A stretch of 64,000 nt of DNA from the NCBI GenBank assembly GCA_040902745.1, contig JBBDWR010000011.1, positions 50,320 to 114,319 on the forward strand, in the 5' to 3' direction. The stretch comes from Actinomycetota bacterium (lineage in GTDB: Bacteria > Actinomycetota > UBA4738 > HRBIN12). Below the pieces are notes generated by a model. That model saw only the letters and a program-made list of their open reading frames with translations, was not told the DNA's origin and did not search any database. The position numbers and the translations under genes are program-made. Below, piece after piece: positions 14,308 through 34,839 of the stretch (position 1 is its first letter; each line of letters starts with the position of its first letter).

Positions 14308-14437
14308 ACCGCGAGGATACGAGGCGGCGGGATTTTCGTACTCACCGGTGATGAGCCGATGCTGGGGTGATTGCTCGCGGATCGACCGTGCACGTTGAGG
14401 CGACCGGCCCGCACCGCTCGATCCGGCGTAGATCCGG

Positions 14438-15640: not shown

Positions 15641-16567
15641 ATGCCGTCCGTGAGTGAGCGCCGGTGCCCGAACTGCGGCGCTCTCGTGGCGGCCGACGCG
15701 CAATGGTGCAGCCTCTGCTTCCACTCGCTCGTCGAGGTACCGCGTGAGCCGGAACCCTCGCCTCCTGCGGCCGATGGCGGCGGTGCTCCACCGCCTCCTC
15801 CCCCCCCTCCCGGGGATCACGTCCTTGAAGGGCCACCGATCGCGGGCGCGACGCCTCCGCCCCCGCCGGTCTTGGGAGCGGAGGTACCTCCGTCCGAGCT
15901 CGCGGATCAGGGCGAGGCGGCGGCCTCTCCAACCTGGACCTGTCCGAATTGCGACGAGGTGAATCCGCTTGCGGAGAACAACTGCCGCGTGTGTGGCACC
16001 ACCTACTTCAGTCTGTTCTCGTCTGTTTCCCGTCCTGAGGTGTCCCGCCGGGAGGCGGTCATGCGATCGCTGTTGTACCCGGGGCTCGGACACGCGCTCG
16101 TTGGTCGTGCCGGCGACGGCGTCGCGCGCGGCGTGCTGTTCGCCTGGGCGCTGGGGACCGTCGCCCTCCTGCTGCTCAGTCGAGGCGACCGGCCCCTCGG
16201 TCCGTTGTTGGGGATGACGGCGGTCTACCTTCTCGTCGCGATCGGGATCTATGTGTTGACCGCATTCGAGGCGGGGCAGCTTGCCGAAGGAGGTGACGTG
16301 ATCATCTCCTCGCGGGGGCTCGCATGGTTCTCCGCGGCGCTCGTGATCATCACGCTGGTCCTCGCCTTCGTGCTGATCAGCGGGTCATCGAACCCGGCCG
16401 ACGACACGGAGCCCCTCCCGGGTGCGTCGGCGGACCAGAGTCCGGCCACCCTTCCGCTCGAGGACCCGACCGCGCAAGCGACCGGGATCCCGACATCGCC
16501 TGCCACCGGCGCGCCGTCGGTGGTTCCGAGGCGGCCGGCCCCGGAGGGTAGGATGCGGCGCGAATGA
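15641..16567 (+). CDS. Double zinc-ribbon membrane protein (hypothetical)
   Basis: Two CxxC...CxxC ribbons (CPNCG...CSLC and CPNCD...CRVC), a Pro-rich linker and C-terminal TM helices. Confidence 0.6.
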   Translation: MPSVSERRCPNCGALVAADAQWCSLCFHSLVEVPREPEPSPPAADGGGAPPPPPPPPGDHVLEGPPIAGATPPPPPVLGAEVPPSELADQGEAAASPTWTCPNCDEVNPLAENNCRVCGTTYFSLFSSVSRPEVSRREAVMRSLLYPGLGHALVGRAGDGVARGVLFAWALGTVALLLLSRGDRPLGPLLGMTAVYLLVAIGIYVLTAFEAGQLAEGGDVIISSRGLAWFSAALVIITLVLAFVLISGSSNPADDTEPLPGASADQSPATLPLEDPTAQATGIPTSPATGAPSVVPRRPAPEGRMRRE

Positions 16568-17004
16568 GCGAGTACGCGGCGGGATCGGTCCAGATCGACG
16601 CAAGTCCGTGGGACGTGATGGAGGTCATCACCGACTACGAGTCTTATCCCGACTGGACCGAGGTGGCGTCCGCCGAGATCCGCGTGCGTGGCCAAGGTGG
16701 CCTTCCCTCAGAGGTCGCCTACGAGGTTGACGTTCCCTTCCTCGGCACCGCGAGCTACACCCTCGCCTATGTCTACGCAGGCGATCAGGCGGTGTCGTGG
16801 TCGACCAAGGAGGCGCGGGGAGCGGTGCGGGACATCCGAGGTGAGTACCTGCTCCGGGAGCTCGACGACGACCGCACCGAGGTCACCTACCGTCTCGCGG
16901 TCGATCTCGGGGTGTTGGTGCCCGGATTCGTTCGGACACAAGGTTCCCAGCGGGTGATCGAGAACGCCCTCGAGAAACTCAAGGCGAGGGTCGAAGGCCG
17001 CTAA
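16564..17004 (+). CDS. SRPBCC (polyketide cyclase/START-like) family protein
   Basis: 146 aa START/Bet v1-like fold pattern. Its start overlaps the stop of the previous gene. Confidence 0.65.
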   Translation: MSEYAAGSVQIDASPWDVMEVITDYESYPDWTEVASAEIRVRGQGGLPSEVAYEVDVPFLGTASYTLAYVYAGDQAVSWSTKEARGAVRDIRGEYLLRELDDDRTEVTYRLAVDLGVLVPGFVRTQGSQRVIENALEKLKARVEGR

Positions 17005-17064
17005 GACTTCGGCGTCGGTGCTCGTCCGGTCCCCGATCTGTGAGGTTCGCCTATCCTGACGGCG

Positions 17065-18267
17065 ATGCGTGTGCTGCTGTTCACCGGCAAGGGCGGGGTC
17101 GGGAAGACGACCGTCGCCGCAGCGACCGCCGTACGGGCGGCTCGTTCGGGGCTCAAGACGATGGTGATGAGCACCGACCCGGCGCACTCGTTGGCCGATT
17201 CGTTCGACCTGCCTCTCGAGTCGGATGCCACGCAGATCGAGGATCGCCTGTGGGCCGAACAGATCGACTCGCAGGAGCGCCTGGAAACCAACTGGCGCGA
17301 CATCCAGGAGTACTTCATCCAGTTGATGAACTGGGCGGGTGTCGAGGCGGTCCAAGCCGAAGAACTGTCGGTGATCCCGGGCCTCGATGAGATCTTCAGC
17401 CTGATCGACGTCAAGCGTCACGTGGAGTCTGGGAACTACGACCTGCTGGTCGTCGACTGCGCTCCGACCGCCGAGACGCTCCGGTTGCTCTCGCTGCCCG
17501 AGGTCATGAACTGGTACATCGAGAGGATCTTCCCGGTCGAGAAGCGGATCGTGAAGACCGTGCGTCCGCTCGTATCGCGGATGACATCGCTCCCGATCGC
17601 GGGTGACCAGTTCTTCGCCGCGATCGAACAACTGCACGGCAACCTCGACGCTGTTCGTCGGATCCTCACCGACGAGAAGGTCTCGACCGTGCGCTTGGTG
17701 ATGAACCCGGAGAAGATGGTCATCTCCGAAGCGCGCCGGACCTATACGTACTTGTCGCTGTTCGGGTACCGGGTCGACGCGGTCGTCGTGAATCGCATCT
17801 TCCCCGAGGACGTCACCGATCCATACTTCGGCAAGTGGAAGGACATCCAGGCGGAACACCTCGCGACCGTGCGGGAGTCCTTCGAGCCCGTACCGATCCT
17901 GACCGCGAAGCTGTTCGATCGCGAGATGGTCGGAGCCACGCTCCTCGGAGACATGGGTCAGGAGGTCTACGGCGAACTCGACGCAGCGTCGATCCTCTTC
18001 CACGATGAGCCCGTGCGTGTGCGCAAACGAGGCGAGGCGTACGTGTTGTCGATGCGCTTGCCGTTCGTCTCGCGCGACGATATGGACATCCACCGCCGCG
18101 GTGAGGAGCTGTACGTTCGTGTCGGCACCTACAAGCGGAACCTGATCTTGCCTCAGACCCTGCAACGCCTCGTCGTTCGCGAGGCGAACTTCCGCGGGGA
18201 GCACCTCGAGATACTCTTCGGCCGATCGGGATCCTCGACGGCCGCCGGTCCGGGAGGGAGCGCGTAG
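17065..18267 (+). CDS. ArsA/Get3-family ATPase
   Basis: Deviant Walker A GKGGVGKTT, ArsA signature DTAPTAETL-like (DCAPTAETLRLL) and a 400-aa length. Confidence 0.85.
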   Translation: MRVLLFTGKGGVGKTTVAAATAVRAARSGLKTMVMSTDPAHSLADSFDLPLESDATQIEDRLWAEQIDSQERLETNWRDIQEYFIQLMNWAGVEAVQAEELSVIPGLDEIFSLIDVKRHVESGNYDLLVVDCAPTAETLRLLSLPEVMNWYIERIFPVEKRIVKTVRPLVSRMTSLPIAGDQFFAAIEQLHGNLDAVRRILTDEKVSTVRLVMNPEKMVISEARRTYTYLSLFGYRVDAVVVNRIFPEDVTDPYFGKWKDIQAEHLATVRESFEPVPILTAKLFDREMVGATLLGDMGQEVYGELDAASILFHDEPVRVRKRGEAYVLSMRLPFVSRDDMDIHRRGEELYVRVGTYKRNLILPQTLQRLVVREANFRGEHLEILFGRSGSSTAAGPGGSA

Positions 18268-18615
18268 ATGACCACCACGAGGCACGACGGCACACATCCG
18301 TCGGCGGCGCAGCCGAACGGACATGAGACGACCGACGCGGACGGCGTGGTGTCCGGATCCGAGCCGACCCAGAGCGGGACATCCGACGCCGGTACCGACG
18401 CGCCGTCGGACGCCGCGGAAAGCCACGTCTGTCCCGTGGGGTTCTGCCCGATCGGGATGGCCGTCAACTCCGCAGGCCAGGTGAAACCCGAGGCGATCGG
18501 ACACCTACTCGTCGCGGGACGTGAACTACTCCTGGCGGCGAAAGCCGTCGTGGAGGCTCGGTCGGACGAAGTCGACGAGGCCGTCACGCGTTTCCAGAAG
18601 ATCGACATCGGCTGA
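18268..18615 (+). CDS. Hypothetical acidic protein with CPVGFCPIG motif
   Basis: Its ATG comes immediately after the ArsA stop. It has a low-complexity acidic N-terminus and a conserved-looking Cys motif. Confidence 0.5.
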   Translation: MTTTRHDGTHPSAAQPNGHETTDADGVVSGSEPTQSGTSDAGTDAPSDAAESHVCPVGFCPIGMAVNSAGQVKPEAIGHLLVAGRELLLAAKAVVEARSDEVDEAVTRFQKIDIG

Positions 18616-18632
18616 AGCCGGACATCGGTGCC

Positions 18633-19604
18633 GTGAGTCCGTTCCCGTTCGCCGATCCTGCTGCGCAGGCCGTCGGCATCGATGTCGGAGGAACGAAGAT
18701 CGCCGGATATCGGATCTCGGGAGCGGGGGAGATCCTCGCCCATGCCGAGGTCCCGTCGCCCGCCGACGATGCGGACGCCCTCGTCGCGGCCATCGTGGGG
18801 ATCGCGCGGGGGCTGGCGAGGGACGAGGTGCGATGCGTCGGAGTCGGCGCGGCGGGGATGGTCGACCACGCGGGCACGATCCGGTTCTCACCGAACCTCG
18901 CATGGCGCGAGACGGAGCTGCGCAGCCGGATCGCGGACGCCGTCGCACTTCCCACGCACGTCGACAACGACGGGAACGTCGCCGCGTGGGGGGAATTCCG
19001 CGTCGGCGCCGGCCGGGATATCGATCACATGTTGCTGGTCGCACTCGGAACGGGGATCGGGGGAGGCATCGTGATCGACGGTCGCCTGATCCGTGGCGCG
19101 CACGGATTCGCGGGGGAGGTTGGCCACGTCATCGTCGACCCGGACGGTCCCCTGTGCGGCTGTGGCAATCATGGATGCTGGGAACAGATGGCCTCCGGAA
19201 CGGCGATCCAGCGGGCAGGACGGCGAGCGGCTCGAGAGCATCCGCGCAGCCTGCTCGCCGGTCTGGGCGCCGGCGATCCCGAGGCGATCACCGGGCACGA
19301 TGTAACGCGTGCAGCGCGTGAGGGCGATGGGATCGCGCGCAGCGTTCTCGCGAAAGTCGGCCGACATCTCGGGGAAGGACTCGCGGGGTTGGTGAACATC
19401 CTCGATCCGCAACTCATCGTGATCGGTGGCGGCGCCGTCGAGTCGGGTGACCTGCTCCTTGCTCCTGCCCGAGCTGCCTTCCGCGACACGGTGGAGGCGC
19501 CGCAGCACCGGCCGCGACTACCGTCGATCGTGCCCGCGGCGCTGGGGAACGACGCGGGCGGGGTGGGCGCGGGGTTGCTGGCCCTCGAGGAGCTGGCATC
19601 GTGA
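18633..19604 (+). CDS. ROK-family glucokinase
   Basis: ROK signature: DVGGTK N-terminus and the Zn-binding motif CGCGNHGCWE. Confidence 0.85.
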   Translation: MSPFPFADPAAQAVGIDVGGTKIAGYRISGAGEILAHAEVPSPADDADALVAAIVGIARGLARDEVRCVGVGAAGMVDHAGTIRFSPNLAWRETELRSRIADAVALPTHVDNDGNVAAWGEFRVGAGRDIDHMLLVALGTGIGGGIVIDGRLIRGAHGFAGEVGHVIVDPDGPLCGCGNHGCWEQMASGTAIQRAGRRAAREHPRSLLAGLGAGDPEAITGHDVTRAAREGDGIARSVLAKVGRHLGEGLAGLVNILDPQLIVIGGGAVESGDLLLAPARAAFRDTVEAPQHRPRLPSIVPAALGNDAGGVGAGLLALEELAS

Positions 19605-20509
19605 AGCTGGGATTGCTCCTACCCTTGTTCACGGGCGATCCGGGCCGGGTGCGCGAGGCTGCCCAGCGTGCCGAGGAACTCGGGTTCGACGGCGGGTTCG
19701 GGTTCGACCATCTCTTTCCTCCATGGGCGGACGTGCAGCGCCCCTCGCTCGAGGTGTTCACCACTCTCGCCAACGTCGCCGCATCGACGTCGCGGCTCGC
19801 CCTCGGGACGTTGGTCGCTCGCGTGACGATCCGGCCGCCGGGGGTGCTCGCGAAACAGGCCGCCGCGCTCGATCAGCTCACCGATGGGCGGTTCGTGCTG
19901 GCCCTCGGAACCGGTGACGCCGAACGGGATCCCGAAGCTTCCACCTTTGGGTTCCCTTCTCCCACCGCCGCGGAACGCCGGACGCTCCTCGAGGAGACGG
20001 TGGGCGCGTGCCGAGCTCTGTTCGCGGGGGAGCAGTGGCCGGGCGGCGAACAGGTGCCGGCGATCTCGGGACCCCTCGCTCCACCCCCGGCCGGCCCCAC
20101 AGGTCCGCCGATCTGGATCGGGGGAACCTCACCCGCGGCGATCCGGATCGCAGCCAGGCTCGGTGACGCGTGGAACGGTTGGGGGCTGCACGCAGGCGGG
20201 TTCGGGGAGCGCGCGAAACGTCTCGCGAAGCAGACCGCCAGGTTCGGCCGTGTGGTCCCGCCGACATGGGCCGGACTCGCACTCGTGGGCAAGGACGAGG
20301 AGGAGCTTGCGCGGTTGCGCGCCAATCGGGACGAGCGAGGTGCGCCGGGACAGGGCGTCTGGACCGGCACGACGGACGCGTTCGCCGACGAACTCCGCTC
20401 GATCCGCGACGCAGGTGCTTCGTGGGCGATCGTGATGGCCGCCGGTCCCGCCGACCGGGTCGACGTGATCGCTGAGGCAGCTCGTCGCGCCGGCGTTCTC
20501 GGGAGGTGA
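19601..20509 (+). CDS. LLM-class (luciferase-like) F420-dependent oxidoreductase
   Basis: TIM-barrel LLM pattern (FGFDHLF...RLALGTGD...PPIWIGG). Confidence 0.75.
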   Translation: MKLGLLLPLFTGDPGRVREAAQRAEELGFDGGFGFDHLFPPWADVQRPSLEVFTTLANVAASTSRLALGTLVARVTIRPPGVLAKQAAALDQLTDGRFVLALGTGDAERDPEASTFGFPSPTAAERRTLLEETVGACRALFAGEQWPGGEQVPAISGPLAPPPAGPTGPPIWIGGTSPAAIRIAARLGDAWNGWGLHAGGFGERAKRLAKQTARFGRVVPPTWAGLALVGKDEEELARLRANRDERGAPGQGVWTGTTDAFADELRSIRDAGASWAIVMAAGPADRVDVIAEAARRAGVLGR

Positions 20510-20512
20510 GCG

Positions 20513-21118
20513 GTGGACGCGTTGTCATCGGGAGAGCTGAAGCGGCACAAGCGACGGATCCGGGAGGAGATCGTGCGACGGCGGGACGCCGTGCCGGCGC
20601 CCGATCGCGATGCGGCAGCCTTGCGGGTCACCGATCTCGTGGCGAGGATCCTGTCCGATCACAGCGCCCGCATCGTGATGGTGTTCTGGTCGTTCGGCTC
20701 TGAGCTCCCGACGGAAGGGTTGATCGAGCGGCTCGCGGATGAAGGTCGGACGGTCTGCCTGCCGCGCCTCGCGAAGGGGCAGATGCGTGCCCGGACCTAT
20801 CGTCCGGGCGATCCGGTGGTCGAGACGTCGTTCGGGGCCTACGAACCCGCGGATGGCGCGATCGTCGAGGCGGCAGACCTCGATGCCGTGCTCGTGCCGG
20901 CCGTCGCGTTCGATCGCCTGGGTTTCCGGGTCGGCTACGGGGGCGGATTCTACGACCGCTTCCTCCGGGGGGTTCGGCCCGACGCTCTTCGCATCGGAAT
21001 CGGGCTCGCGGCCCAGCGCGTCGAACAGGTCCCCCGAGGGCACTTCGACCTGCCCGTTGACCTCGTCGTTACCGAATACGGGGTCGACGATGTCGGTGGG
21101 CGGCGCTCTTCGACTTGA
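20513..21118 (+). CDS. 5-formyltetrahydrofolate cyclo-ligase (MTHFS)
   Basis: 201 aa with the C-terminal GYGGGFYDR motif typical of MTHFS. Confidence 0.8.
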   Translation: MDALSSGELKRHKRRIREEIVRRRDAVPAPDRDAAALRVTDLVARILSDHSARIVMVFWSFGSELPTEGLIERLADEGRTVCLPRLAKGQMRARTYRPGDPVVETSFGAYEPADGAIVEAADLDAVLVPAVAFDRLGFRVGYGGGFYDRFLRGVRPDALRIGIGLAAQRVEQVPRGHFDLPVDLVVTEYGVDDVGGRRSST

Positions 21119-21194
21119 ACCGCCAGTCAAATCCCTGGTAGAACCCGTGTGCATCACGTCCCCACCCACCGCTGCACGAGGAGGCCGATCCGCG

Positions 21195-22295
21195 ATGGTC
21201 GACGAGCACGAGTCCCCCTTCTACGCGATCCAAGAGTCCTTGGGCGCCACCTTCGTTCCGGAGGGTGGTTGGTTCTGGACGGATACCTTCGGCGACACCG
21301 ACGCCGAGTACAAGGCGCCGCGTGAAGGTGTCGGCATGTGGGATCTGGCTCCCTTGAACAAGTGGGAGTTCACCGGGAAGGATGCGACGGCCGCGATCCA
21401 GCGCATGAACTCCAACGACATCGTGGGGATGCGCCCGGGCAGGGTTCGCTACGGCGCGTTCCTCGATGCCGATGGCCGCATGATCGATGACGGAACCGTG
21501 TACAAGTTCAACGACGAGCGCTATTGGGTGATGACCAACGGGATGGAACGGCGCGAGTACTTCGCCGAGAACACCCAGGGTCTGGACGTGAACATCGAGT
21601 ACCGCTCGTTCGAGCTGCCGAACCTCCAGGTCCAGGGACCGCGTTCCCGGGACCTGTTGGGTTCGCTCACCGACGTCGACCTCGCAGCACTGAAATACTT
21701 CTCGTTCCTCCCCGAGCAGGTGGCGGTCGGCGGCGTTCCGGTGACGCTCTCGCGCACGGGGTTCTCCGGCGAGCTCGGGTTCGAGCTGTTCGTCGCTGCG
21801 GAGAACGCCGATGCCCTGTGGAAGGCTGTGCACGGTGCCGGAGCGCAGCCCTACGGCGTCGGCGTGATCGAGCCGATCCGCATCGAAACAGGCATGATCG
21901 TGACGGACTACGACTACGAACCGAACGCGCGAACGCCTTTCGACTTCAGCATGGACCGGCTCGTCGCGACCGACGTCGCAGGCGCCGAGTTCAACGGCAA
22001 GGCGAAACTCACGGAGATCGCGAAGAACCCGCCGAACCGGTTCAAGACGGTGAAGTGGGACGGCGACGTCACTCCAGAGTACGGCTCGGCGATCACCAAG
22101 GACGGCGAAGAGGTCGGGGTCTGCACGAGCCCCTGTCAGAGCCCGAAGTTCGGCGGCATCGGGCTGGCGATCCTTCGATCGGATGTCGCGATCGACGGCG
22201 AGAAGATCGAGGTCGCACACGAGGACGGAACGCTTCCCGCGACGATCGATGTGCTCGCGATCTACGACCCCGACAAGCGCAAGCCTCGAAGCTGA
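21195..22295 (+). CDS. GcvT-family aminomethyltransferase-like protein (THF-dependent C1 transferase/demethylase-like), paralog 1
   Basis: 366 aa from the internal ATG (MVDEHESPFY...) show glycine-cleavage T-protein family architecture. The upstream 150 codons of the track ORF are an artifact. Confidence 0.8.
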   Translation: MVDEHESPFYAIQESLGATFVPEGGWFWTDTFGDTDAEYKAPREGVGMWDLAPLNKWEFTGKDATAAIQRMNSNDIVGMRPGRVRYGAFLDADGRMIDDGTVYKFNDERYWVMTNGMERREYFAENTQGLDVNIEYRSFELPNLQVQGPRSRDLLGSLTDVDLAALKYFSFLPEQVAVGGVPVTLSRTGFSGELGFELFVAAENADALWKAVHGAGAQPYGVGVIEPIRIETGMIVTDYDYEPNARTPFDFSMDRLVATDVAGAEFNGKAKLTEIAKNPPNRFKTVKWDGDVTPEYGSAITKDGEEVGVCTSPCQSPKFGGIGLAILRSDVAIDGEKIEVAHEDGTLPATIDVLAIYDPDKRKPRS

Positions 22296-22334
22296 GCGCG
22301 TTCGTATCGGCGAGACGAACGAAGGGAAACCCAG

Positions 22335-23438
22335 ATGGCTGATCCGGTGAAGTCCCCGCTCTACGACGTGCAGGCCCAAGCCGGGGCGGAGTTCGAGGAT
22401 TTCGACGGCTTTTTGTGGACGGCACACCTCGGCGACGTGATGGGGGAGTACGAGACTGTTCGCACGGGTGCCGGTCTGTGGGATGTGTATCCGCTGGTGA
22501 AATGGGACTTCTCCGGCACCGACGCGCTTCGGGCGGCACAGCGCGTGTTCACCAATGACGTGGTGCACTTGCAGACGGGCCAAGTCCGCTACGGCGCTTT
22601 CGTCGACGACACGGGCAACATGGTGGACGACGGCACGATCTACAAGCTCACCGACGATCACTGCTGGGTCATGACTAACCTTCCCGGCTACGACGCATAC
22701 TTCGCCGGCGCGATGCAGGGGTTGGACGTGAAGATCGAGGATCGCACCTACGACATGCCGTTGATCTCGCTGCAGGGCCCCGACTCGCGGGCCGTGTTGT
22801 CGAAGGTGACCGACGCAGATCTGTCCGAGCTCCGGTACTTCCGGTTCTGGCCCGAGCGCGTTCAAGTCGCCGGTATCCCCGCGTGGGTGCTTCGCACCGG
22901 ATTCTCAGGCGAGGTCGGCTACGAGTTGATCCCCGATCGCGACCGCGCGGTCGAGCTGTGGAACGCGCTCCAAGCGGCCGGGGCGCGGCCGTTCGGTACC
23001 CACGCGATCGAGATCGCGCGCATCGAGGCGGGCCTGATCGTCGCAGGGGTCGAGTACGAGCCCGGAGTGCGCTCGCCCTATGACCTCTCGCTCGACCGGA
23101 TGGTCGCGATCGACGATCCGGCGTGCGATTTCCTGGGCAAGGACCGACTCACGCAGATCGCCGCCGACCCACCCAACCGTTTCAAGACGCTGCGCATCAA
23201 GGGCACCGCCGTGCCAGGGTACGGAACCGCGGTGATGCTGGGCGGCGAGGAGGAAGTCGGCACACTCACGAGCGCGATCGACAGCCCTCCGTTCGGCGTG
23301 ATCGGACTCGCGGTACTCCGGAGCGATCAGTCCGTCGACGGCACTCAGCTCCAGGTTGCTGTGGAGGGCGGCGCGGCCGAGGCAACGGTGGCGCCCTTGT
23401 CGATCTACGATCCGCAGAAGCGCAAGCCCCGCGGCTGA
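22335..23438 (+). CDS. GcvT-family aminomethyltransferase-like protein, paralog 2
   Basis: 367 aa, about 50% identical to paralog 1 (RYGAFVDDTGNMVDDGTIYK..., both ending IYDPDKRKPR). Confidence 0.85.
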   Translation: MADPVKSPLYDVQAQAGAEFEDFDGFLWTAHLGDVMGEYETVRTGAGLWDVYPLVKWDFSGTDALRAAQRVFTNDVVHLQTGQVRYGAFVDDTGNMVDDGTIYKLTDDHCWVMTNLPGYDAYFAGAMQGLDVKIEDRTYDMPLISLQGPDSRAVLSKVTDADLSELRYFRFWPERVQVAGIPAWVLRTGFSGEVGYELIPDRDRAVELWNALQAAGARPFGTHAIEIARIEAGLIVAGVEYEPGVRSPYDLSLDRMVAIDDPACDFLGKDRLTQIAADPPNRFKTLRIKGTAVPGYGTAVMLGGEEEVGTLTSAIDSPPFGVIGLAVLRSDQSVDGTQLQVAVEGGAAEATVAPLSIYDPQKRKPRG

Positions 23439-23489
23439 TCCGAGCGGCGGTCGTCAGGATCAGGTCGCCCGGATCCGGTGAGCGGAGCC

Positions 23490-25160
23490 TCAGAACAAGC
23501 CAACCGTGCGGCCGTCGGTGTCGATGTCGACCTTCTGGAACGCGGGGGTTCTGCCGAGCCCCGGCATCCGCTGCATGTCGCCGCAGAGCACCACCACGAA
23601 TCCCGCACCGGCACTGGGAACCACGGATCGCACCGGGAGCCAAAAGCCCCGTGGGCGGTTGAGCAGGGTCGGGTCATGCGAGAGGGACAGGTGGGTTTTG
23701 GCCATACAGACGGGGAAGGTCCCGAATCCGAGAGCGTCCATCCGCACGATGTCCTTGCGGGCCTGGGGAAGGAGATCCACGCCCTGTGCTCCGTAGAGCT
23801 GGGTTGCGATCGCCTCGATCTGCTCGGTGATCGGCGTTCCGTTCGGCGTGAGGTGCGAGAAGGTGTTCGGCTGTTCGCACGCCTCGACGACCGCGTTCGC
23901 GAGGGTCACCGCACCGTCTCCGCCGTCGGCGAATCCCTCGTTGACGACGACGGTCTGTGCTCCGGCGGCGGTTGCGAGCCGTTCGATCAGTTCGATCTCC
24001 GCGGGCGTGTCGGTCGGGAACCGGTTGATCGACACCACGCACGGGAGTCCATAGCGCTTCACGATCTCGATGTGGGCGGTCAGGTTGTCCATGCCGTCGC
24101 GCAGCGCGTTCAGATCCTCCGTGCCGAGGTCTTCGAAGCGCTTGCCACCGTGAGACTTCGTGGCGCGCACCGTCGTCACCAGCACCGCGGCGCTCGGCGC
24201 GAATCCGCCGACTCGGCACACGATGTCGCAGAACTTCTGGAACCCGAGATCTGATGCGAAGCCCGCCTCCGTGACCACGTAGTCCGCGAGCTTGAGGGCG
24301 ATGCGATCCTCGATGATGGAGTTGTTCGCGTGGGCGATGTTGCCGAACGGGCCGGCGTGTAGCAGCACGGGCTGGTGTTCAAGCGTCTGCACGAGGTTGG
24401 GCTTTATCGCGTCCTTCATGACCACGGTCATCGCCCCGGCGGCCTGAAGATCCTCCGCGGTGACCGGCTTGCCGTCGCGCGTCTCGGCGACCACGATCCT
24501 GCCGAGTCGGTCCCGCAGATCCCGCAGATCGTTCGCGAGGGCGAGGATCGCCATGATCTCCGATGCCGCAGTGATCACGAAGGAGTTTTCGCGGGGAACC
24601 CCGTGCGTCTTGCCCCCGAGACCGACGACCGTGTTACGCAGCTCGCGGTCGTTCATGTCCATCGCGCGCGGCCAAGTGATCGTTGCCGGATCGATGTCGA
24701 GCAGGTTGCCGTGGTACAGCGACGCGTCGAGGGCCGCGGCAAGGAGATTGTGTGCGGCCGTGACCGCGTGGAAGTCCCCGTTGAAGTGGAGATTGATCTC
24801 CTCCATCGGGACCACCTGTGCGAATCCACCGCCGGTGCCACCGCCTTTGATTCCGAAGACGGGGCCCATGCTCGGCTCGCGCAGGCAGAGCATCACGTCC
24901 TTGCCGATCTTCCCGAGGCCCTGAGTGAGCGATACGGACGTGGTCGTCTTGCCTTCTCCGGCCTTCGTAGGGGTGATCGCCGTCGTGATGACGAGTTTGC
25001 CGTCGGGGCGGTCGGCCAGGCGTTCGAGCGCGGAGAGTTGGATCTTGGCCCTGGAGGCGCCGTAGGGCTCGACCTCGTCGGGGAGCAGTCCCGCTTCCCG
25101 GGCAACGTCGGTGATGGGGCGAAGCTCCGCCTCCTGCGCGATCTCCAGTCCGCTCTTCAT
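23490..25160 (-). CDS. fhs: Formate-tetrahydrofolate ligase (10-formyl-THF synthetase)
   Basis: 556 aa from MKSGLEIAQ with the FTHFS signatures PTKAGEGKTTT and the GGGFAQVVPM region. The upstream 62 codons of the track ORF are an artifact. Confidence 0.9.
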   Translation of the reverse strand: MKSGLEIAQEAELRPITDVAREAGLLPDEVEPYGASRAKIQLSALERLADRPDGKLVITTAITPTKAGEGKTTTSVSLTQGLGKIGKDVMLCLREPSMGPVFGIKGGGTGGGFAQVVPMEEINLHFNGDFHAVTAAHNLLAAALDASLYHGNLLDIDPATITWPRAMDMNDRELRNTVVGLGGKTHGVPRENSFVITAASEIMAILALANDLRDLRDRLGRIVVAETRDGKPVTAEDLQAAGAMTVVMKDAIKPNLVQTLEHQPVLLHAGPFGNIAHANNSIIEDRIALKLADYVVTEAGFASDLGFQKFCDIVCRVGGFAPSAAVLVTTVRATKSHGGKRFEDLGTEDLNALRDGMDNLTAHIEIVKRYGLPCVVSINRFPTDTPAEIELIERLATAAGAQTVVVNEGFADGGDGAVTLANAVVEACEQPNTFSHLTPNGTPITEQIEAIATQLYGAQGVDLLPQARKDIVRMDALGFGTFPVCMAKTHLSLSHDPTLLNRPRGFWLPVRSVVPSAGAGFVVVLCGDMQRMPGLGRTPAFQKVDIDTDGRTVGLF

Positions 25161-25323
25161 GCTTGGCGGTCCCCTTCGTCTGAATGGCCGTTCAACTGGT
25201 TCGGACGATACAACCCTGGCGGAATGGCTCCAAACGTGACACCCGTGAGAACGACCGTGGGTCAGGCCGCCGCGCAGGCAGGGGCGGGCGCGGCCTGCGG
25301 CCGGGGTAGACCCCGAGCGGCGT

Positions 25324-26205
25324 ATGGACCCTCGCGGTTGCCGCACCTACCCTGGAGAGATGGCCGCCACCGAACCGCTGCGCAGGAACGTTGCACGCAC
25401 CAAGATCGTCGCCGTCAACGCAGGCGTGCGGTCGGAGCGGCCCGACACGCTCGCGGCCGAAGAGCCGATGGAGATCCGCGCGGGCGGTCCCGGCCAGGAC
25501 ACCGGTTCGGTTGCCGTCACGATGCGCACGCCCGGTGGCGATTTCGAACTCGCCGTCGGGTTCCTGTTCACCGAGGGCCTGATCCGCGGGCGCGACGAGA
25601 TCGATCGGGTCGCATATTGCGACGACGTCGGACCGGACGAACAGCGCTACAACATCGTGACCGTTCGGCTCGCCCATGCCTTCGACACCGAGTCGGTCCG
25701 CAGGAACTTCTACGCCTCGTCGAGTTGCGGTGTCTGTGGCAAGGCATCGATCGACGACATCCAGGTGCGCTGCGCTCCGGTCGCACCGGGACCGCAGGTC
25801 GAGGGCTCGATCATCGCCGGACTCCCCGATGCGCTCCGCCGGGCACAGCCGGTGTTCGACAAGACCGGTGGCTTGCATGCTGCGGGGTTGTTCGGCGTCG
25901 ACGGCGGCCTGATCAGTCTGCGCGAGGATGTCGGGCGGCACAACGCGGTCGACAAGGTCATCGGTGAGCAGCTGCTGGCCGGCACGGTACCGCTGGCCGA
26001 GCGCATCCTTCAGGTTTCGGGTCGAGTCAGCTTCGAGATCGTGCAGAAGGCCGCGGTTGCCGGGATCCCGGTGATCTCGGCGGTGAGTGCGCCGTCGAGC
26101 CTGGCGGTCGAGGCCGCCGAGGGCTTCGGCATGACCGTCGTTGGCTTCGTGCGCGACGATCGGTTCAATGTCTACTCTCACCCCGAACGCATCGGGACCA
26201 CCTGA
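25324..26205 (+). CDS. fdhD: Formate dehydrogenase accessory sulfurtransferase FdhD
   Basis: FdhD family (SSCGVCGK active-site Cys motif, GRHNAVDK). The alternative start ATG at 25360 has an adjacent GGAGAG. Confidence 0.8.
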   Translation: MDPRGCRTYPGEMAATEPLRRNVARTKIVAVNAGVRSERPDTLAAEEPMEIRAGGPGQDTGSVAVTMRTPGGDFELAVGFLFTEGLIRGRDEIDRVAYCDDVGPDEQRYNIVTVRLAHAFDTESVRRNFYASSSCGVCGKASIDDIQVRCAPVAPGPQVEGSIIAGLPDALRRAQPVFDKTGGLHAAGLFGVDGGLISLREDVGRHNAVDKVIGEQLLAGTVPLAERILQVSGRVSFEIVQKAAVAGIPVISAVSAPSSLAVEAAEGFGMTVVGFVRDDRFNVYSHPERIGTT

Positions 26206-26350
26206 GGTCTCTGGGCGGTCATACGGTCGACCCCCGCCCGGCGGGGTGCGACCAAGGGTCATGGCCGAGGTCCGGATCCCATTTGAACGGGGGTTTAGAA
26301 TCGTGGAGCAACCGGCCGATGCCGGTTGGACATCTCGGAAAGGAGCGCCG

Positions 26351-28282
26351 ATGCCGAACGGGCTCGCGCGACTCACGGAGCCGATGGTTCGCGAGAACGG
26401 CGAGCTGCGCGTCGTCCCCTGGGAGGTGGCCCTGGACCGGGCCGCCGAGGGGCTGCGCGCGGCGACCGATGCGAACGGCGGGGACGGAGTCGGCCTGTTC
26501 AGCTGCTCGAAGGCCACCAACGAGATGAACTTCGTTGCTCAGAAGTTCATCCGCCAGGCCCTTCGCAGCAACAACATCGATAGCTGTAACCGCACCTGAC
26601 ACGCACCTTCGGTCGTCGGTCTGGCGACCGTGTTCGGGGCAGGTGGTGGCACAAGTTCATACGAGGAGGTCGAACACACGGACCTCGTGATCCTCTGGGG
26701 ATCGAATGCGCGAGAGACGCACCCGATCTTCTTCCATCACGTCCTCGCCGGGATCCACAACGGTGCGCGGCTGTTCGCCGTGGATCCTCGGCGCACCTCC
26801 TCGGCCGAATGGGCCGATCTCTGGCTGGGGATCGACGTCGGTACCGACGTCGCGTTGTCGAACACGATGGCGAGGGAGATCATCGCGAGCGACTTGCACG
26901 ACAAGACGTTCATCTCGCGGGCGACCAGCGGGTTCGCCGCGTACGAGAAGAGCGTCGAGGACTGGACGCTCGACCGAGGGGCGGCCGTTACCGGCGTCCC
27001 GGCGGAGGTGATCCGGGAGGCCGCCCACGCGTACGCACGCGCGGACCGCGCGATGATCTGCTGGACGCTCGGGATCACCGAGCACCACAACGCGGTCGAC
27101 AACGTGCTCGCGTTGATCAACCTCGGCCTGCTGACCGGTCACGTCGGCACCTACGGCAGCGGACTCAATCCGCTTCGCGGACAGAACAACGTTCAGGGCG
27201 GTGGAGACATGGGCGCGATCCCGAACAAGCTCCCCGGGTTCCAGGACCTCGAGCGAGATCCGGCCGCGCGCGAGCGGTTCGAGCGCGCGTGGGGGGTTCC
27301 GATCGCTCCGAAGTATGGCTGGCACCTGACGCAGATGTTCGAGGCGATGGAGCGTGGCGAACTGACGGCTGTTTACGTGATCGGGGAGAATCCCGCGAGT
27401 TCAGAGGCCGACATGCATCGGGCCCGCAAGCTGCTGTCCAACCTCGACACCCTGATCGTGCAAGACATCTTCATGACGAAGACGGCGGAGATGGCTGATG
27501 TGGTGCTGCCCGCCTCAGCCTCGTGGGCCGAGACCGAGGGGACGGTGACCAACTCAGAGCGCCGGGTGCAGCGTGTTCGCAAGGCGCTCGACCCTCCCGG
27601 GAACGCACGCGACGACGTCTGGATCATCAACCAGCTCGCGAACCGGCTCGGACTGAGCTGGGGTGAGGTGACGCCGCATGCCGCGTGGGACGAACTCCGC
27701 ACCCTGAGCCCGATGCACGGCGGGATGAGCTGGAAGCGGCTCGAGGAGGAGGGCGGGCTCCAGTGGCCCTGCCCGGACGAAGAGCATCCCGGGACCCTCT
27801 TCCTGCACGAACGGCTCTGGGAGGAGGATCCCGCTGCGCGAGGCGAGCCCGCACCGTTCAGCATCACGATCGACTCCGCGCCCGTCGACGAGCTGACAGA
27901 TGAGTATCCGCTGCGGCTGACGACGGGACGGCGCCTGACCGACTACAACACGGGCGTGCAGACGGGTGGATTCTCCTCACCCCTGCGTCGGCAGGAGTCC
28001 GTCGACATCTCGCCCGAGGATGCGCGAGACCTCGGTGTGGCCGAGGGGGAGATCGTTCGCGTGACCTCTCGGCGGGGGACGGTCGACGCGCCGATCCGGA
28101 TCGACACGGTCCTGCGGCCGGGGCTGATCTTCATGACGTTCCACTTCCCCGAAGAGGTGGAGACGAACAAGCTCACCATCGACGCCACCGATCCCAAGTC
28201 CGGAACCGCCGAGTTCAAGGCGGCGGCGGTGCGGATCGACAAGTTGCCGGACGTGGTTGCCGCCGGCGGGGGCGGATCGTAG
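26351..28282 (+). CDS. fdhA: Formate dehydrogenase Mo-bisPGD catalytic subunit; probable selenocysteine at an in-frame TGA (26597-26599); lacks the N-terminal Fe4S4 domain
   Basis: The ATG is preceded by the RBS GGAAAGGAG. The translation across the TGA reads CNRT-U-HAPSVVGL, which aligns with E. coli FdhF CARV-U-HGPSVAGL. The downstream frame continues as molybdopterin oxidoreductase domains to 28282. The ORF track splits this gene into 26141..26599 and 26630..28282. Confidence 0.8.
26597..26599 (+). other. In-frame UGA, predicted selenocysteine codon
   Basis: Its position corresponds to the Sec/Cys active-site residue of FDH-alpha. Confidence 0.65.
26610..26630 (+). other. SECIS-like hairpin (CGGUCG-UCGGUCUGG-CGACCG)
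   Basis: A 6-bp stem with a 9-nt loop containing GGUC starts 11 nt after the UGA. This is the usual place for a bacterial SECIS. Confidence 0.45.
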
Positions 28283-28301
28283 TGCCCGAGCGGCAGGGGG
28301 C

Positions 28302-30236
28302 GTGTTGGACCTCCAGCTGACCGACGCGCGCGCCACCGTGGAGGAGCGCGCGGCAGTCGACGCGCTGCTCGGACCGCCCGAAACGCCGTGGGACGGCGGC
28401 GAGCGCGATGCGTACGGCGTCCGTGTTTCTCGAACCGGCCGCGAAGCGAGGGAACAACGCCACCTCCTGCTCCCCGCTCTGCACGCCGTGCAGGATCGGA
28501 TCGGGTGGATCAGCGAAGGCGCGTTGAACTACGTCTCGATCCGGCTGACCGTTCCTCCCGCCGAGACGTTCGGAGTCGCCAGCTTCTACGCGCTGTTCGC
28601 TCTGCAGGAGCGCCCGCCGACCGTGGTCCACATCTGCGACGACATCGCCTGTGGATCTTCGGGAGCGGAGCGTCTCTGCGGAGAGATGGAGCGGCTGATC
28701 GGTCCCGCAGGCACACCCACCACCGACGGGGGCACGACCTGGCAGCGCAGCCCGTGTCTCGGCCTATGCGAGCAGGCCCCCGCCGCGCTGGTGCAGCGAG
28801 CGGGGATCGGCGTGACCGACCGGTCGATCGGCTGCGCGCGCGCCGAGGACGTCGTTGCGGCGATCACGTCCCGAGCCGACGAGATCGGCCTCGGTGCCGA
28901 CGTCGCGACGATCGCGCCGCAGACCGCAGACGAGAGCAGGTCCGAACTTCGGCTGCTGCGCCGGGTGGGTGTCGTCGACCCCGGATCCCTCGACAGCTAC
29001 CGAGCCGAAGGAGGGTACGAAGCCCTTCGGATGGCGGTCGAGATGGGCCCGGGCGGCGTCATCCGAGAGCTCAAGGACGCGAGGCTGATGGGCCGCGGCG
29101 GGGCTGCGTTCCCGACGGGGGTCAAGTGGGAGGCCGTGGCGTCGCAGGCGAGTCGCCCGCACTACTTCATCTGCAACGCGGACGAGTCCGAGCCCGGAAC
29201 CTTCAAGGACCGTGTCCTGATGGAGCACGATCCGTTCGCATTGATCGAGTCGCTCACGATCGCCGGATACACCACGGCGTCGGAGCACGGGTCGATCTAC
29301 ATCCGAGGGGAGTATCCGCTCGCCCAGGCGCGACTGCGCCATGCGATCGATGAAGCACGTGAACGCGGGTATCTCGGTGACGACGTGATGGGGGAAGGGT
29401 TCACCTTCGACATCGAGGTGCGCCGCGGAGCCGGCGCCTACATCTGCGGCGAGGAAACGGCATTGCTGAACTCGATCGAAGGCAAGCGCGGCGAACCTCG
29501 AAGCAAGCCACCGTTCCCGGTTTCCCGCGGCCTGTTCGGCAAGCCCACAGGGATCAACAACGTCGAGACGCTCGTCAACGTACTGGAGATCCTCCGGATC
29601 GGAGGCCCGGCATACGCGCAGATCGGCACAGAAGGATCCACCGGCCCGCGGCTGTTCTGCCTGTCGGGCACGGTGGAACGACCCGGACTGTACGAGGTCC
29701 CGTTCGGTGCCACGCTCCGCGACCTGATCGAGCTCGCCGGCGGGGTGTCCGGCGGGCGGCCACTGAAGGCGGTTCTGCTGGGCGGTGCTGCCGGAGCGTT
29801 CGTCCGTCCGCAGGACCTGGATCTGAAGCTGACGTTCGAAGACACTCGGGCGGCGGGGGTCACCCTGGGGTCGGGCGTCGTGATGGCGTTCGACGACACG
29901 GTGTCGCTCCCGGAGGTGCTGCTGCGGATCGCGGCGTTCTTCCGCGACGAATCCTGCGGGCAATGTGTACCGTGCCGTGTGGGAACGGTGCGCCAGGAGG
30001 AGGCGCTCCAACGGATCGTCCGCGGCGCCCAGATCGGCTCGCGGGACGAGGAGCTCGCGCTTCTGGGCGAGATCGCGCAGGTGATGCGCGACGCCTCGAT
30101 CTGCGGGCTCGGTCAGACAGCAGCAAACGCGGTGGTCTCGGCGATCGAGCAGCTCGGTGTGTTCGAAGGCGCGGACACGTCGAACGGGAGTCAGGATCGC
30201 TCCGTCCCCACTCGTACCGAAGAACAGGAGTCCTAG
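28302..30236 (+). CDS. NAD(H)-binding formate dehydrogenase diaphorase subunit, NuoE-like/NuoF-like fusion (FdsG-FdsB)
   Basis: The N-terminus is a thioredoxin-like 2Fe-2S domain (CDDIACGSSG...C). It is followed by NuoF motifs (GRGGAAFPTG FMN site, GAGAYICGEETAL NADH site, ESCGQCVPCR 4Fe-4S). The GTG at 28302 follows AGGGGG. The alternative TTG at 28257 overlaps the previous gene. Confidence 0.85.
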   Translation: MLDLQLTDARATVEERAAVDALLGPPETPWDGGERDAYGVRVSRTGREAREQRHLLLPALHAVQDRIGWISEGALNYVSIRLTVPPAETFGVASFYALFALQERPPTVVHICDDIACGSSGAERLCGEMERLIGPAGTPTTDGGTTWQRSPCLGLCEQAPAALVQRAGIGVTDRSIGCARAEDVVAAITSRADEIGLGADVATIAPQTADESRSELRLLRRVGVVDPGSLDSYRAEGGYEALRMAVEMGPGGVIRELKDARLMGRGGAAFPTGVKWEAVASQASRPHYFICNADESEPGTFKDRVLMEHDPFALIESLTIAGYTTASEHGSIYIRGEYPLAQARLRHAIDEARERGYLGDDVMGEGFTFDIEVRRGAGAYICGEETALLNSIEGKRGEPRSKPPFPVSRGLFGKPTGINNVETLVNVLEILRIGGPAYAQIGTEGSTGPRLFCLSGTVERPGLYEVPFGATLRDLIELAGGVSGGRPLKAVLLGGAAGAFVRPQDLDLKLTFEDTRAAGVTLGSGVVMAFDDTVSLPEVLLRIAAFFRDESCGQCVPCRVGTVRQEEALQRIVRGAQIGSRDEELALLGEIAQVMRDASICGLGQTAANAVVSAIEQLGVFEGADTSNGSQDRSVPTRTEEQES

Positions 30237-30239
30237 ACG

Positions 30240-31286
30240 ATGTCCAGGGTGATGCTGGCTCCGCCCAAGCGACTGATCGACATCGAGGTCGACGGTGCGA
30301 CGGTCCGCGTGCCCGAGGGCTCCACGCTGCTGGATGCGCTGCGCACCGAGGGGGTGGACACGCCCACGCTGTGTTACCTCGAGAACCTGACACCGGTGAA
30401 TGCGTGTCGCGTATGTGTTGTCGAGGTGGAGGGTGCTCGCACCCTGGTCCCTTCGTGCGCCCGCCAGGCTGAGGCGGGGATGAAGGTTCGAACCGATTCC
30501 GAGCGCGTGCGGACGAGCCGCAGGATGGTCTTCGAGTTTCTGGCCTCCAGCGTGGACCTCTCCCTCGCGGGGGAACAGGTCCAGGGGTGGATGTCCGCCT
30601 ACGGCGTGGAGCCGGACCGCTACGGCCCGAGCGCCGAGCCGGCTCCGCTGGGCGAACGCGAGGCCCGCATCCCCGGGCACCACCACGGGTCCGAGGGGGA
30701 AGCGGCCGAGACCGTCGCACAGCCGATCAAGGTGGACAACGATCTGTACGTCCGGGAGTACTCGCGGTGCATCCTCTGCTACAAGTGCGTCGAGGCGTGC
30801 GGTGTCGACGCACAGAACACGTTCGCGATCGCGGTCGCCGGCCGGGGCTTCGATGCGCGGATCTCCACCGAGTTCGACGTCACGCTGCCCGACTCCGCGT
30901 GTGTGTACTGCGGCAATTGCATCGGCGTCTGCCCCACTGGAGCCCTGATGTTCAAGTCCGAGTACGACATGCGCGAAGCCGGCACCTGGGACGAGCAGGA
31001 ACAGACCGTGACCGAGACGATCTGCCCGTATTGCGGCGTCGGCTGTGATCTGTCGCTGCACGTCCAGGACAACGAGATCGTCAAGGTCACGAGCCCGCTC
31101 GACAACTCGGTCACACACGGGCATCTGTGCATCAAGGGCAGGTTCGGGTTCCAGTTCGTGCAGAACAGAGGCCCCAAGGACGCCGACGCCGGCGCCCGCG
31201 GAGTCGGACTCGTGGAGGGCCCCGCCGATCGGATCGCGCGTCAAGCCGGTACCGGAGACGACGCCCCGGAGACGACGCGAAGGTGA
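30240..31286 (+). CDS. Fe-S subunit corresponding to the N-terminal (NuoG-like) part of FDH-alpha: 2Fe-2S, two 4Fe-4S ferredoxin clusters and a molybdopterin-oxidoreductase Fe4S4 domain
   Basis: Cys motifs CYLENLTPVNACRVC, CILCYKCVEACG, CVYCGNCIGVCP and CPYCGVGCDLSLH. Confidence 0.85.
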   Translation: MSRVMLAPPKRLIDIEVDGATVRVPEGSTLLDALRTEGVDTPTLCYLENLTPVNACRVCVVEVEGARTLVPSCARQAEAGMKVRTDSERVRTSRRMVFEFLASSVDLSLAGEQVQGWMSAYGVEPDRYGPSAEPAPLGEREARIPGHHHGSEGEAAETVAQPIKVDNDLYVREYSRCILCYKCVEACGVDAQNTFAIAVAGRGFDARISTEFDVTLPDSACVYCGNCIGVCPTGALMFKSEYDMREAGTWDEQEQTVTETICPYCGVGCDLSLHVQDNEIVKVTSPLDNSVTHGHLCIKGRFGFQFVQNRGPKDADAGARGVGLVEGPADRIARQAGTGDDAPETTRR

Positions 31287-31324
31287 TCCGATGGAGGTTC
31301 TCGCCGCGCTGATCGCAACGATCG

Positions 31325-34818: not shown

Positions 34819-34839
34819 AGCGGTCCATATACTGAATCG

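Follow-up and report, generated by a model that had tools for sequence, protein, structure and literature searches.

Tandem GcvT-fold proteins in a folate/formate gene cluster of uncultured Actinomycetota: a subfamily apart from GcvT with a candidate role in one-carbon capture

Our analysis concerns two tandem genes in a 64,000-nt stretch of the metagenome-assembled genome (MAG) of an Actinomycetota bacterium (assembly GCA_040902745.1, contig JBBDWR010000011.1, positions 50,320 to 114,319), referred to below as the window. The encoded GcvT-fold proteins TA (21195-22295, forward strand, 366 aa, clade A) and TB (22335-23438, forward strand, 367 aa, clade B) are predicted to bind tetrahydrofolate (THF) and are flanked by folate-recycling genes on one side and formate-oxidising genes on the other. 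Judged by their sequences they are not GcvT, the glycine cleavage system's T-protein. The explanation that we favour, with roughly even confidence, is that they represent an uncharacterised branch of the GcvT-fold THF-dependent one-carbon (C1) transferases, functionally like the T-domains of TMAO demethylase (Tdm), heterotetrameric sarcosine oxidase subunit alpha (SoxA), dimethylglycine oxidase (DMGO) and dimethylglycine dehydrogenase (DMGDH). As stand-alone T-domain enzymes, TA and TB would load a C1 unit at the formaldehyde level onto THF as 5,10-methylene-THF and thereby feed its oxidation.

The proteins themselves already have entries in public databases, where they bear a generic name, and their fold and general chemistry are well known. 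TA, TB and the neighbouring formate--tetrahydrofolate ligase Fhs are identical to NCBI MEX2274536.1, MEX2274537.1 and MEX2274538.1, respectively, from an Actinomycetota MAG. PGAP names both TA and TB 'aminomethyltransferase family protein', and JGI labels some family members 'glycine cleavage T-protein'. New is the recognition of a compact subfamily of three clades that can be diagnosed by a signature, is organised as stand-alone proteins in tandem, and holds a fixed position in a folate/formate cluster of uncultured Actinomycetota.

TA and TB share 50% identity over their full length (184 of 366 residues, E=5e-132). Both belong to the GcvT-fold superfamily, since their scores against PF01571 and PF08669 (190.6 and 35.1 bits for TA, 190.2 and 37.0 bits for TB) lie well above the cut-offs of 25.6 and 25.9. 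The GcvT subfamily model NF001567 was by a narrow margin their top NCBIfam match, but with 203.6 bits (TA) and 211.8 bits (TB) against a cut-off of 300. The second GcvT model, TIGR00528, was likewise missed (161.1 and 166.6 bits against 235.85). The Tdm model NF053776 gave 202 and 210 bits against a full-length cut-off of 1100, with matches confined to model positions 386-762, which represent the T-domain. No curated functional NCBIfam model was reached by either protein.

Residue comparisons were based on four reference GcvTs (E. coli, Rhodococcus, B. subtilis 1yx2 and T. maritima 1woo) and are numbered according to mature E. coli GcvT. All four references keep His50-Met51 of the FDVSHM motif, Arg223 and Arg292. 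Arg292 is reportedly an invariant T-protein residue that the complex with the H-protein requires for its assembly. In TA and TB, His50-Met51 is replaced by Pro-Leu and Arg223 by Ile, while Arg292 is Glu in TA and Gly in TB. The signature of TA reads PL/D/N/E/I/E versus HM/D/N/E/R/R in GcvT. Across the family the first position is P-L or S-T and the second I or V, and the third is E, D, A or G in all 349 members examined (mostly E or A in clade A, mostly E or D in clade B, D or E in clade C).

Other residues of the active site were retained. Tyr84, Asp97, Asn113 and Glu195 are kept in TA, TB and all three clades (Tyr84, Asp97 and Glu195 in nearly all of the 349 members), and Tyr101 is also kept in TA and TB. 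The catalytic Asp97, Tyr84 and Glu195 are common to all THF-using T-fold enzymes and do not discriminate between families. A C-terminal tail, YDPxK(R/K)RPR, occurs in all clades (YDPQKRKPRG in TB). It is missing from the four GcvTs, common to Tdm, and found in a looser form in the sampled SoxA proteins. The human counterpart of Arg223, R233, has been described as a GcvT-specific THF contact (PMC9551070), and its equivalent has been lost in Tdm (PMC12560246).

Alignment and clustering covered 360 sequences, comprising family members from the loci described below and from protein searches, the four GcvTs, three Tdm C-domains and two SoxA-type C-domains. The family falls into clade A (196 sequences, including TA and every first-position copy), clade B (109 sequences, including TB) and clade C (44 sequences with the S-T motif, the second copy in most MAGs). 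In the neighbour-joining tree, bootstrap values were 100 for A, for C, for A, B and C together and for the separation of the GcvT references, and 70 for A plus B. TB is not a recent local duplicate of TA, as indicated by the identity of only 50% and by orthologs of its own at 59-90% identity, some of them in other contexts. Nor is it the ortholog of the second copy in most related MAGs, which belongs to clade C. The scores below cut-off, the loss of the H-protein-binding residues and the separate clade together argue against either protein being a bona fide GcvT.

A phmmer search against 1.84 billion representatives at 50% identity returned few full-length representatives with more than 40% identity, and the first complete GcvT signature appeared at rank 48 with 33% identity. 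Among the top 150 matches, several of the multi-domain proteins scanned with Pfam were fusions of a T-domain to SO_alpha_A3 (SoxA type) or DUF1989 (Tdm type). The top matches in PDB sequences were the Paracoccus Tdm C-domain (9q5a; 2.9e-43 for TA) and B. subtilis GcvT, and the top plasmid matches by tblastn were DUF1989-GcvT fusions with 30-32% identity. Pfam found no DUF1989 in TA, TB or the neighbouring genes. AlphaFold models of TA and TB reached pLDDT values of 94 and 95. With the TA model, the only one searched, Foldseek gave TM values of 0.85-0.91 to GcvT, DMGDH, SoxA, DMGO and DmdA, 0.77 to LigM and 0.67 to YgfZ. The top matches were GcvTs, and the comparison of folds fails to separate GcvT, DMGDH, SoxA, DMGO and DmdA from one another.

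The arrangement around TA and TB is widely conserved. A survey of one genome per GTDB species yielded 71 loci, all from uncultured Actinomycetota MAGs and mostly from soil, and homolog look-ups added 13 loci. In about 80 independent MAG loci the order LLM-MTHFS-T-(T)-(FtcD-FchA-like-glyoxalase)-Fhs-FdhD-formate dehydrogenase (FDH) was recovered. About 45 loci show LLM-MTHFS-TA-TC-FtcD-FchA-like-(glyoxalase)-Fhs(-)-(FdhD), and about 17 have the same order with a single T gene, LLM-MTHFS-TA-FtcD-FchA-like-(glyoxalase)-Fhs(-)-(FdhD). The window type, LLM-MTHFS-TA-TB-Fhs(-)-FdhD-FDH, was found in 7 loci in addition to the window, among them its nearest relatives L077-L079 with 83% identity. The occurrence in about 80 loci indicates that the arrangement did not arise by chance and that the tandem is neither strain-specific nor recent. 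The folate neighbourhood pointed out in a preliminary description of this DNA is thereby shown to be conserved, and it is richer in the relatives, which add FtcD, the FchA-like gene and a downstream selenocysteine FDH. The two outcomes named there as fatal to its proposal, clustering inside GcvT with an intact H-protein interface and a recent duplication confined to this strain without the folate neighbours, did not materialise.

The first-position copy belongs to clade A in all related loci, and the second position is taken by clade B or C, so that two paralogous T clades often occur per genome. Orthologs of TB occupy the same tandem position or lie directly behind a DAO oxidase gene. Most related loci have Fhs downstream of their T genes. 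In most related MAGs, genes for FtcD, an FchA-like protein and a glyoxalase-fold protein are inserted between the T genes and Fhs (L001-L071; e.g. 12285-14276 of L051). The FtcD protein exceeds the glutamate formimidoyltransferase cut-off (310 against 221), and the product of the following gene, an FchA-like cyclodeaminase/cyclohydrolase, remains below its own (178 against 275). None of these three genes was found anywhere in the 64 kb of the window. It is exactly in the gap between T and Fhs that FtcD and the FchA-like gene are present in some loci and missing from others, and related loci contain six consecutive folate/formate genes.

In the window, the four central genes lie where the preliminary description had placed them, with TA and TB in tandem on one strand, MTHFS upstream and a convergent Fhs downstream. 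MTHFS, a 5-formyl-THF cyclo-ligase (20513-21118, forward strand), scored 124 bits with PF01812 and 149.7 bits with TIGR02727 (cut-off 84.9). Fhs (23490-25160, reverse strand, convergent with TB) scored 818 bits with PF01268 and 783 bits with NF010030 (cut-off 652). The spacers measure 76 nt between MTHFS and TA and 39 nt between TA and TB, and the Shine-Dalgarno-like sequences GAGGAGG and GAAGGGA precede TA and TB, respectively. A 7-bp inverted repeat (CGTTCGT...ACGAACG, 9-nt loop) is located at 22299-22321 within the TA-TB spacer. Scanned with Rfam at gathering thresholds, the whole window showed no riboswitch (glycine, THF or ZTP) and no other family. A promoter and terminator consensus scan of 18000-26800 in this GC-rich DNA (65-70%) gave nothing exceeding shuffled sequences.

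Upstream of MTHFS, a luciferase-like (LLM) oxidoreductase of the F420 type is encoded (19601-20509, forward strand; PF00296, 136 bits). Its top NCBIfam matches, both below cut-off, were the F420-dependent LLM subfamilies TIGR03619 (129 bits) and TIGR03560 (127 bits). Only 3 nt separate its stop from the MTHFS start in the window, the two genes overlap by 4 nt in relatives, and the order LLM-MTHFS-T is kept in nearly all related loci. The LLM gene shares its Pfam family with Mer, the F420-dependent methylene-tetrahydromethanopterin reductase, and scored 49.5 bits with NF002619. A role in the folate module is conceivable.

Downstream of Fhs, formate oxidation is represented by FdhD, a formate dehydrogenase sulfurtransferase/accessory protein (25324-26205, forward strand; PF02634, 234 bits) whose gene is kept beside Fhs, and by the FDH genes on the same strand. 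The catalytic molybdopterin subunit (26351-28282) matches positions 141-672 of the Fdh-alpha model TIGR01591 with 530 bits. It is followed by a NuoE-NuoF-like fusion (28257-30236; PF01257, PF01512 and PF10589), the NAD-linked diaphorase part of FDH, which scored 457 bits with the NuoF family and 72-75 bits with NuoE/FDH-gamma. Next is an Fe-S subunit (30240-31286) with NuoG-like 2Fe-2S/4Fe-4S domains and a molybdopterin 4Fe-4S domain (PF13510, PF12838 and PF04879). Residues 260-309 of this subunit correspond to Fdh-alpha model positions 1-50 and represent the detached N-terminal part of FDH alpha. A catalytic subunit without its N-terminal Fe-S part, which is encoded separately after the NuoE-NuoF fusion, is an unusual arrangement that was also seen in L077, L080 and L088. 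A MobA-like molybdenum cofactor guanylyltransferase gene (31313-31921, forward strand; PF12804, 112 bits) follows.

The gene for the catalytic subunit contains an in-frame TGA (26597-26599) inside the motif CNRT-U-HAPSV, and the protein is therefore predicted to be a selenocysteine enzyme. The same TGA was present in all 31 sequences that reach this gene (30 related loci and the window). Programs for open reading frame (ORF) calling break the gene into pieces of 82 and 550 aa. A hairpin behind the TGA, considered as a SECIS candidate, shows no folding advantage over shuffled sequence (z = -0.16).

Further upstream, the window encodes a YgfZ/CAF17-type Fe-S assembly/folate-binding protein (13429-14400, reverse strand; TIGR03317, 63.7 against a cut-off of 49), the third GcvT-fold gene of the window, 7 kb upstream of the T genes. 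It lies beside WhiB and GT4 glycosyltransferase genes and occupies the same place in almost all related loci. The GT4 glycosyltransferase, zinc-ribbon, SRPBCC, ArsA-like ATPase and ROK glucokinase-like genes complete the region up to the LLM gene. Two related loci carry a baeRF-family (bacterial eRF1-like) gene between the ArsA-like ATPase/AF_1253 genes and ROK (2560-3690 of L080 and 1590-2711 of L088), which is absent from the window. Some 10 kb downstream, a GntG-family or low-specificity threonine aldolase-like pyridoxal phosphate enzyme is encoded (34819-35751, forward strand; 241.6 against a cut-off of 230). Enzymes of this kind yield glycine.

Glycine-cleavage partners were searched for in several ways. 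Using GcvH, GcvP and GlyA of E. coli and Rhodococcus as queries, tblastn gave no match in the window and none in 1.43 Mb around 84 related loci. A Pfam scan of 43 window ORFs, picked by codon-position GC, found no GcvH, GcvP, DAO, FolD or MetF. This agrees with the earlier statement that GcvH and GcvP are missing nearby and extends it, for tblastn, to the related loci. The scanned ORFs also contained no SoxB or SO_alpha_A3 domain, and no FAD oxidase, SoxB, SoxD or SoxG gene was seen in the window.

Coupling to FAD oxidases, as known for SoxA, DMGO and DMGDH, was found exclusively in other genomes. In five loci (L082, L084, L085, L086 and L089), clade-B proteins with 59-61% identity to TB are encoded 0-8 nt behind a DAO-family FAD oxidase gene. 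The closest solved homologs of this oxidase are P. horikoshii 1y56_B (deposited as sarcosine oxidase), the FAD halves of DMGDH and DMGO, glycine oxidase and SoxB. Each of the five loci additionally encodes, close by, a Rieske oxygenase and an acyl-CoA dehydrogenase together with a member of the TANGO2 family (e.g. 3275-8926 of L084). The top model for the Rieske oxygenase was glycine betaine monooxygenase GbcA, at 194 bits and below cut-off. In L060 (6034-11077), a clade-A protein is encoded beside the same set of Rieske and DAO genes. Taken together, the DAO gene and the clade-B T gene resemble an enzyme of the dimethylglycine oxidase type that is split in two. L005 is a MAG with a clade-A T gene only; just past its Fhs, at 15915-18851, lie a SoxA-family gene, which scored 686 where the cut-off is 1164, and a DAO gene.

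These observations are consistent with a role of TA and TB in capturing C1 units. Both proteins would bind THF in the conserved cloverleaf cavity of the fold, where the pterin-stacking and hydrogen-bonding residues and the catalytic Asp are kept in sequence and model. A C1 unit at the oxidation level of formaldehyde would then be condensed with THF to 5,10-methylene-THF rather than to 5-methyl-THF. The donor may be free or channelled formaldehyde, or an iminium or carbinolamine arising from the oxidation of N-methyl or similar groups by a separate oxidase or oxygenase, presumably encoded at an unlinked site. Given the gene content, the C1 unit would join the folate pool served by the neighbouring genes. 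There MTHFS would recycle 5-formyl-THF, joined by FtcD and the FchA-like cyclodeaminase/cyclohydrolase in relatives. Fhs would release formate and make ATP, and the adjacent NAD-linked selenocysteine FDH would oxidise formate to CO2, if flux runs in this direction. The combination of a clade-A core copy with a second copy of clade B or C suggests a second donor specificity or a hetero-oligomer.

Several points weigh against this explanation. Neither the donor nor the partner enzyme is encoded in the window, and no oxidase or oxygenase partner was found there or beside the T genes in the main synteny type. The cluster also contains no methylene-THF dehydrogenase (FolD or MtdA) that would join methylene-THF to the methenyl- and formyl-level enzymes. 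The synteny is in part a vertically inherited chromosomal backbone rather than the outcome of selection for an operon. A block of 15 kb from YgfZ through GT4, zinc ribbon, SRPBCC, ArsA, ROK, LLM and MTHFS to T is kept as a whole, including genes unrelated to folate. Because this conserved block holds unrelated housekeeping genes, the adjacency of T and folate genes, taken alone, is weaker evidence than it appears. Furthermore, TA and TB have the GcvT-like Asn113 at a position that is occupied by G or T in the sampled domains of Tdm and SoxA, and our tree is distance-based and was built without DmdA and DMGO sequences.

The preliminary description had likened the pair to the DMSP demethylase DmdA and the aryl O-demethylases LigM and DesA, paired with Fhs/MetF. 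TA and TB would then be direct THF-dependent methyltransferases that transfer an S-, O- or N-methyl group to yield 5-methyl-THF, which we consider unlikely. Stand-alone proteins of about 365 aa resemble DmdA, whose structure superimposes on the TA model with a TM of 0.87, and the window lacks a fused or adjacent oxidase. The conserved upstream LLM gene, from the Pfam family of Mer, could in principle stand in for MetF. The DmdA model NF009133 does match, but with 131.6 bits (TA) and 137.6 bits (TB) it stays far under the cut-off of 410, and the LigM/DesA models NF047885 (cut-off 580) and NF047633 (cut-off 800) gave partial matches of 28.8-40.2 bits. LigM is also longer and structurally more distant. 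MetF was absent from the scanned window ORFs; the related loci were not searched for it. All folate enzymes encoded nearby handle C1 units of the formyl, methenyl or formimino level, and the nearest relatives as well as the C-terminal motif are of the Tdm/SoxA type. Where relatives pair with a DMGO-like oxidase, the product handed over would be an iminium or formaldehyde, not a methyl cation. Hence, the analogy to DmdA and LigM/DesA is not supported. In a broad sense, as C1 salvage from N-methyl oxidation, the proposed THF-dependent demethylation module may hold, as suggested by the DMGO-like oxidase neighbours and the Tdm/SoxA-type relatives. TA and TB would then be the C1-capturing half, not the demethylase.

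Somewhat less probable still is that TA, and perhaps TB, is a divergent true GcvT with GcvH, GcvP and Lpd encoded elsewhere, acting in glycine cleavage or in the reductive-glycine direction. Size and domain layout are those of GcvT, Asp97, Asn113, Tyr84, Tyr101 and Glu195 are kept, and GcvT leads both the NCBIfam and the Foldseek matches. FDH, Fhs and a T-protein make up the gene set of the reductive glycine pathway. The FtcD family includes glycine formiminotransferase, and a formiminotransferase pathway could feed the cleavage direction. In E. coli, ygfZ and gcvTHP lie inside one 14-kb stretch, with the MTHFS gene ygfA presumably just outside it. However, both GcvT cut-offs were missed, Arg292 is replaced in 349 of 349 members, and neither Arg223 nor the SHM motif is kept. 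The existence of three paralogous clades, two of which often occur in one genome, likewise speaks against a GcvT function, as does the failure to find gcvH, gcvP and glyA in the window and in the 1.43 Mb around the 84 loci. Clade-B proteins beside a DAO oxidase and canonical GcvT signatures only from rank 48 onwards point in the same direction.

Least probable of these alternatives is that TA and TB bind folate in a non-catalytic role (regulator, chaperone or YgfZ/Iba57-like protein) or that their clustering is merely inherited synteny, as the wholly conserved 15-kb backbone, a weak match below cut-off to the CAF17 C-terminal barrel PF25455 and the missing demethylase activity of the isolated Tdm T-domain (PMC12560246) might suggest, because the catalytic Asp and the THF contacts are invariant or nearly so over 349 sequences in three clades, a genuine YgfZ/CAF17 ortholog is encoded separately 7 kb upstream while the CAF17-like model TIGR03317 matched neither TA nor TB, six consecutive folate/formate genes are not expected from a random backbone, and FtcD and the FchA-like gene are gained and lost exactly between T and Fhs.

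If C1 capture by TA and TB is correct, widespread uncultured soil Actinomycetota, for which dozens of species-level MAGs stand here (Danish, US and other soils), would possess an operon dedicated to fixing toxic carbon of the formaldehyde level to folate and oxidising it to CO2, gaining ATP and NADH. Such a route would matter for the way in which methylated amines and osmolytes are turned over in soil. The members of a new three-clade subfamily would also stop being counted as glycine cleavage T-proteins in metabolic reconstructions. For annotation, the signature is directly usable: P-L or S-T instead of His50-Met51, I or V instead of Arg223, an acidic residue instead of Arg292, and the C-terminal YDPxKxRPR. 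A more far-reaching extension, which we regard as improbable, is that TA with TB, or TA with TC, forms a THF-specific formaldehyde-activating system, a folate counterpart of Fae, at the entry of an unrecognised C1-oxidation route of soil Actinomycetota. Several unlinked oxidases would supply formaldehyde or iminium to hetero-oligomers of these proteins, the LLM protein would act on methylene-THF in a Mer-like manner, and Fhs, with a yield of ATP, and the NAD-linked selenocysteine FDH would complete the route.

Comparison with characterised systems places TA and TB among several families of one fold. Like DmdA (PDB 3TFH) and LigM/DesA, they are stand-alone GcvT-fold proteins and would use THF without an H-protein. 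These enzymes differ by direct methyl transfer to 5-methyl-THF and by working with MetF, and LigM, with about 460 aa, is longer by some 90 aa. With GcvT, TA and TB share length, the free-standing three-domain fold (TM about 0.9) and the conserved Asp97, Asn113, Tyr84 and Glu195. In contrast, they are only 22-32% identical to the GcvTs of E. coli, Rhodococcus, B. subtilis and T. maritima, have replaced the GcvT-specific residues, score below the GcvT cut-offs, have no gcvH or gcvP neighbour and form a separate clade.

The T-domains of DMGO (1PJ5), DMGDH (4PAB) and SoxA (2GAG/1VRQ) share the fold (TM 0.86-0.90 to TA) and the loss of the GcvT-specific Arg, and the sampled SoxA proteins have a C-terminal tail of the DPxxK type. 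T-domains of the SoxA/DMGO type capture formaldehyde or iminium made at another active site as 5,10-methylene-THF. A further parallel to DMGO and DMGDH is the clade-B protein of relatives directly behind a DAO oxidase that resembles their FAD half. Identities are 24-29%, and TA and TB are free proteins in tandem in a window that is without an FAD oxidase.

The C-domain of Tdm is the closest experimentally characterised relative of TA and TB. It is their best or near-best match in PDB and NCBIfam, although the identity is only about 30%. Differences are that Tdm, about 790 aa long, has its T-domain fused to DUF1989 and a Zn catalytic core, whereas TA and TB stand alone, that Tdm has Gly at the Asn113 position, and that TA and TB form their own clade with a bootstrap value of 100. 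Both share the cloverleaf T-fold, a hydrophobic residue in place of Arg223, the loss of Arg292 and of the SHM motif, and the C-terminal tail, which reads YDPxK(E/R)RPR in Tdm. The Tdm C-domain binds THF with a dissociation constant of about 149 nM and makes methylene-THF from formaldehyde that is channelled to it from a distant catalytic site (PMC13619132).

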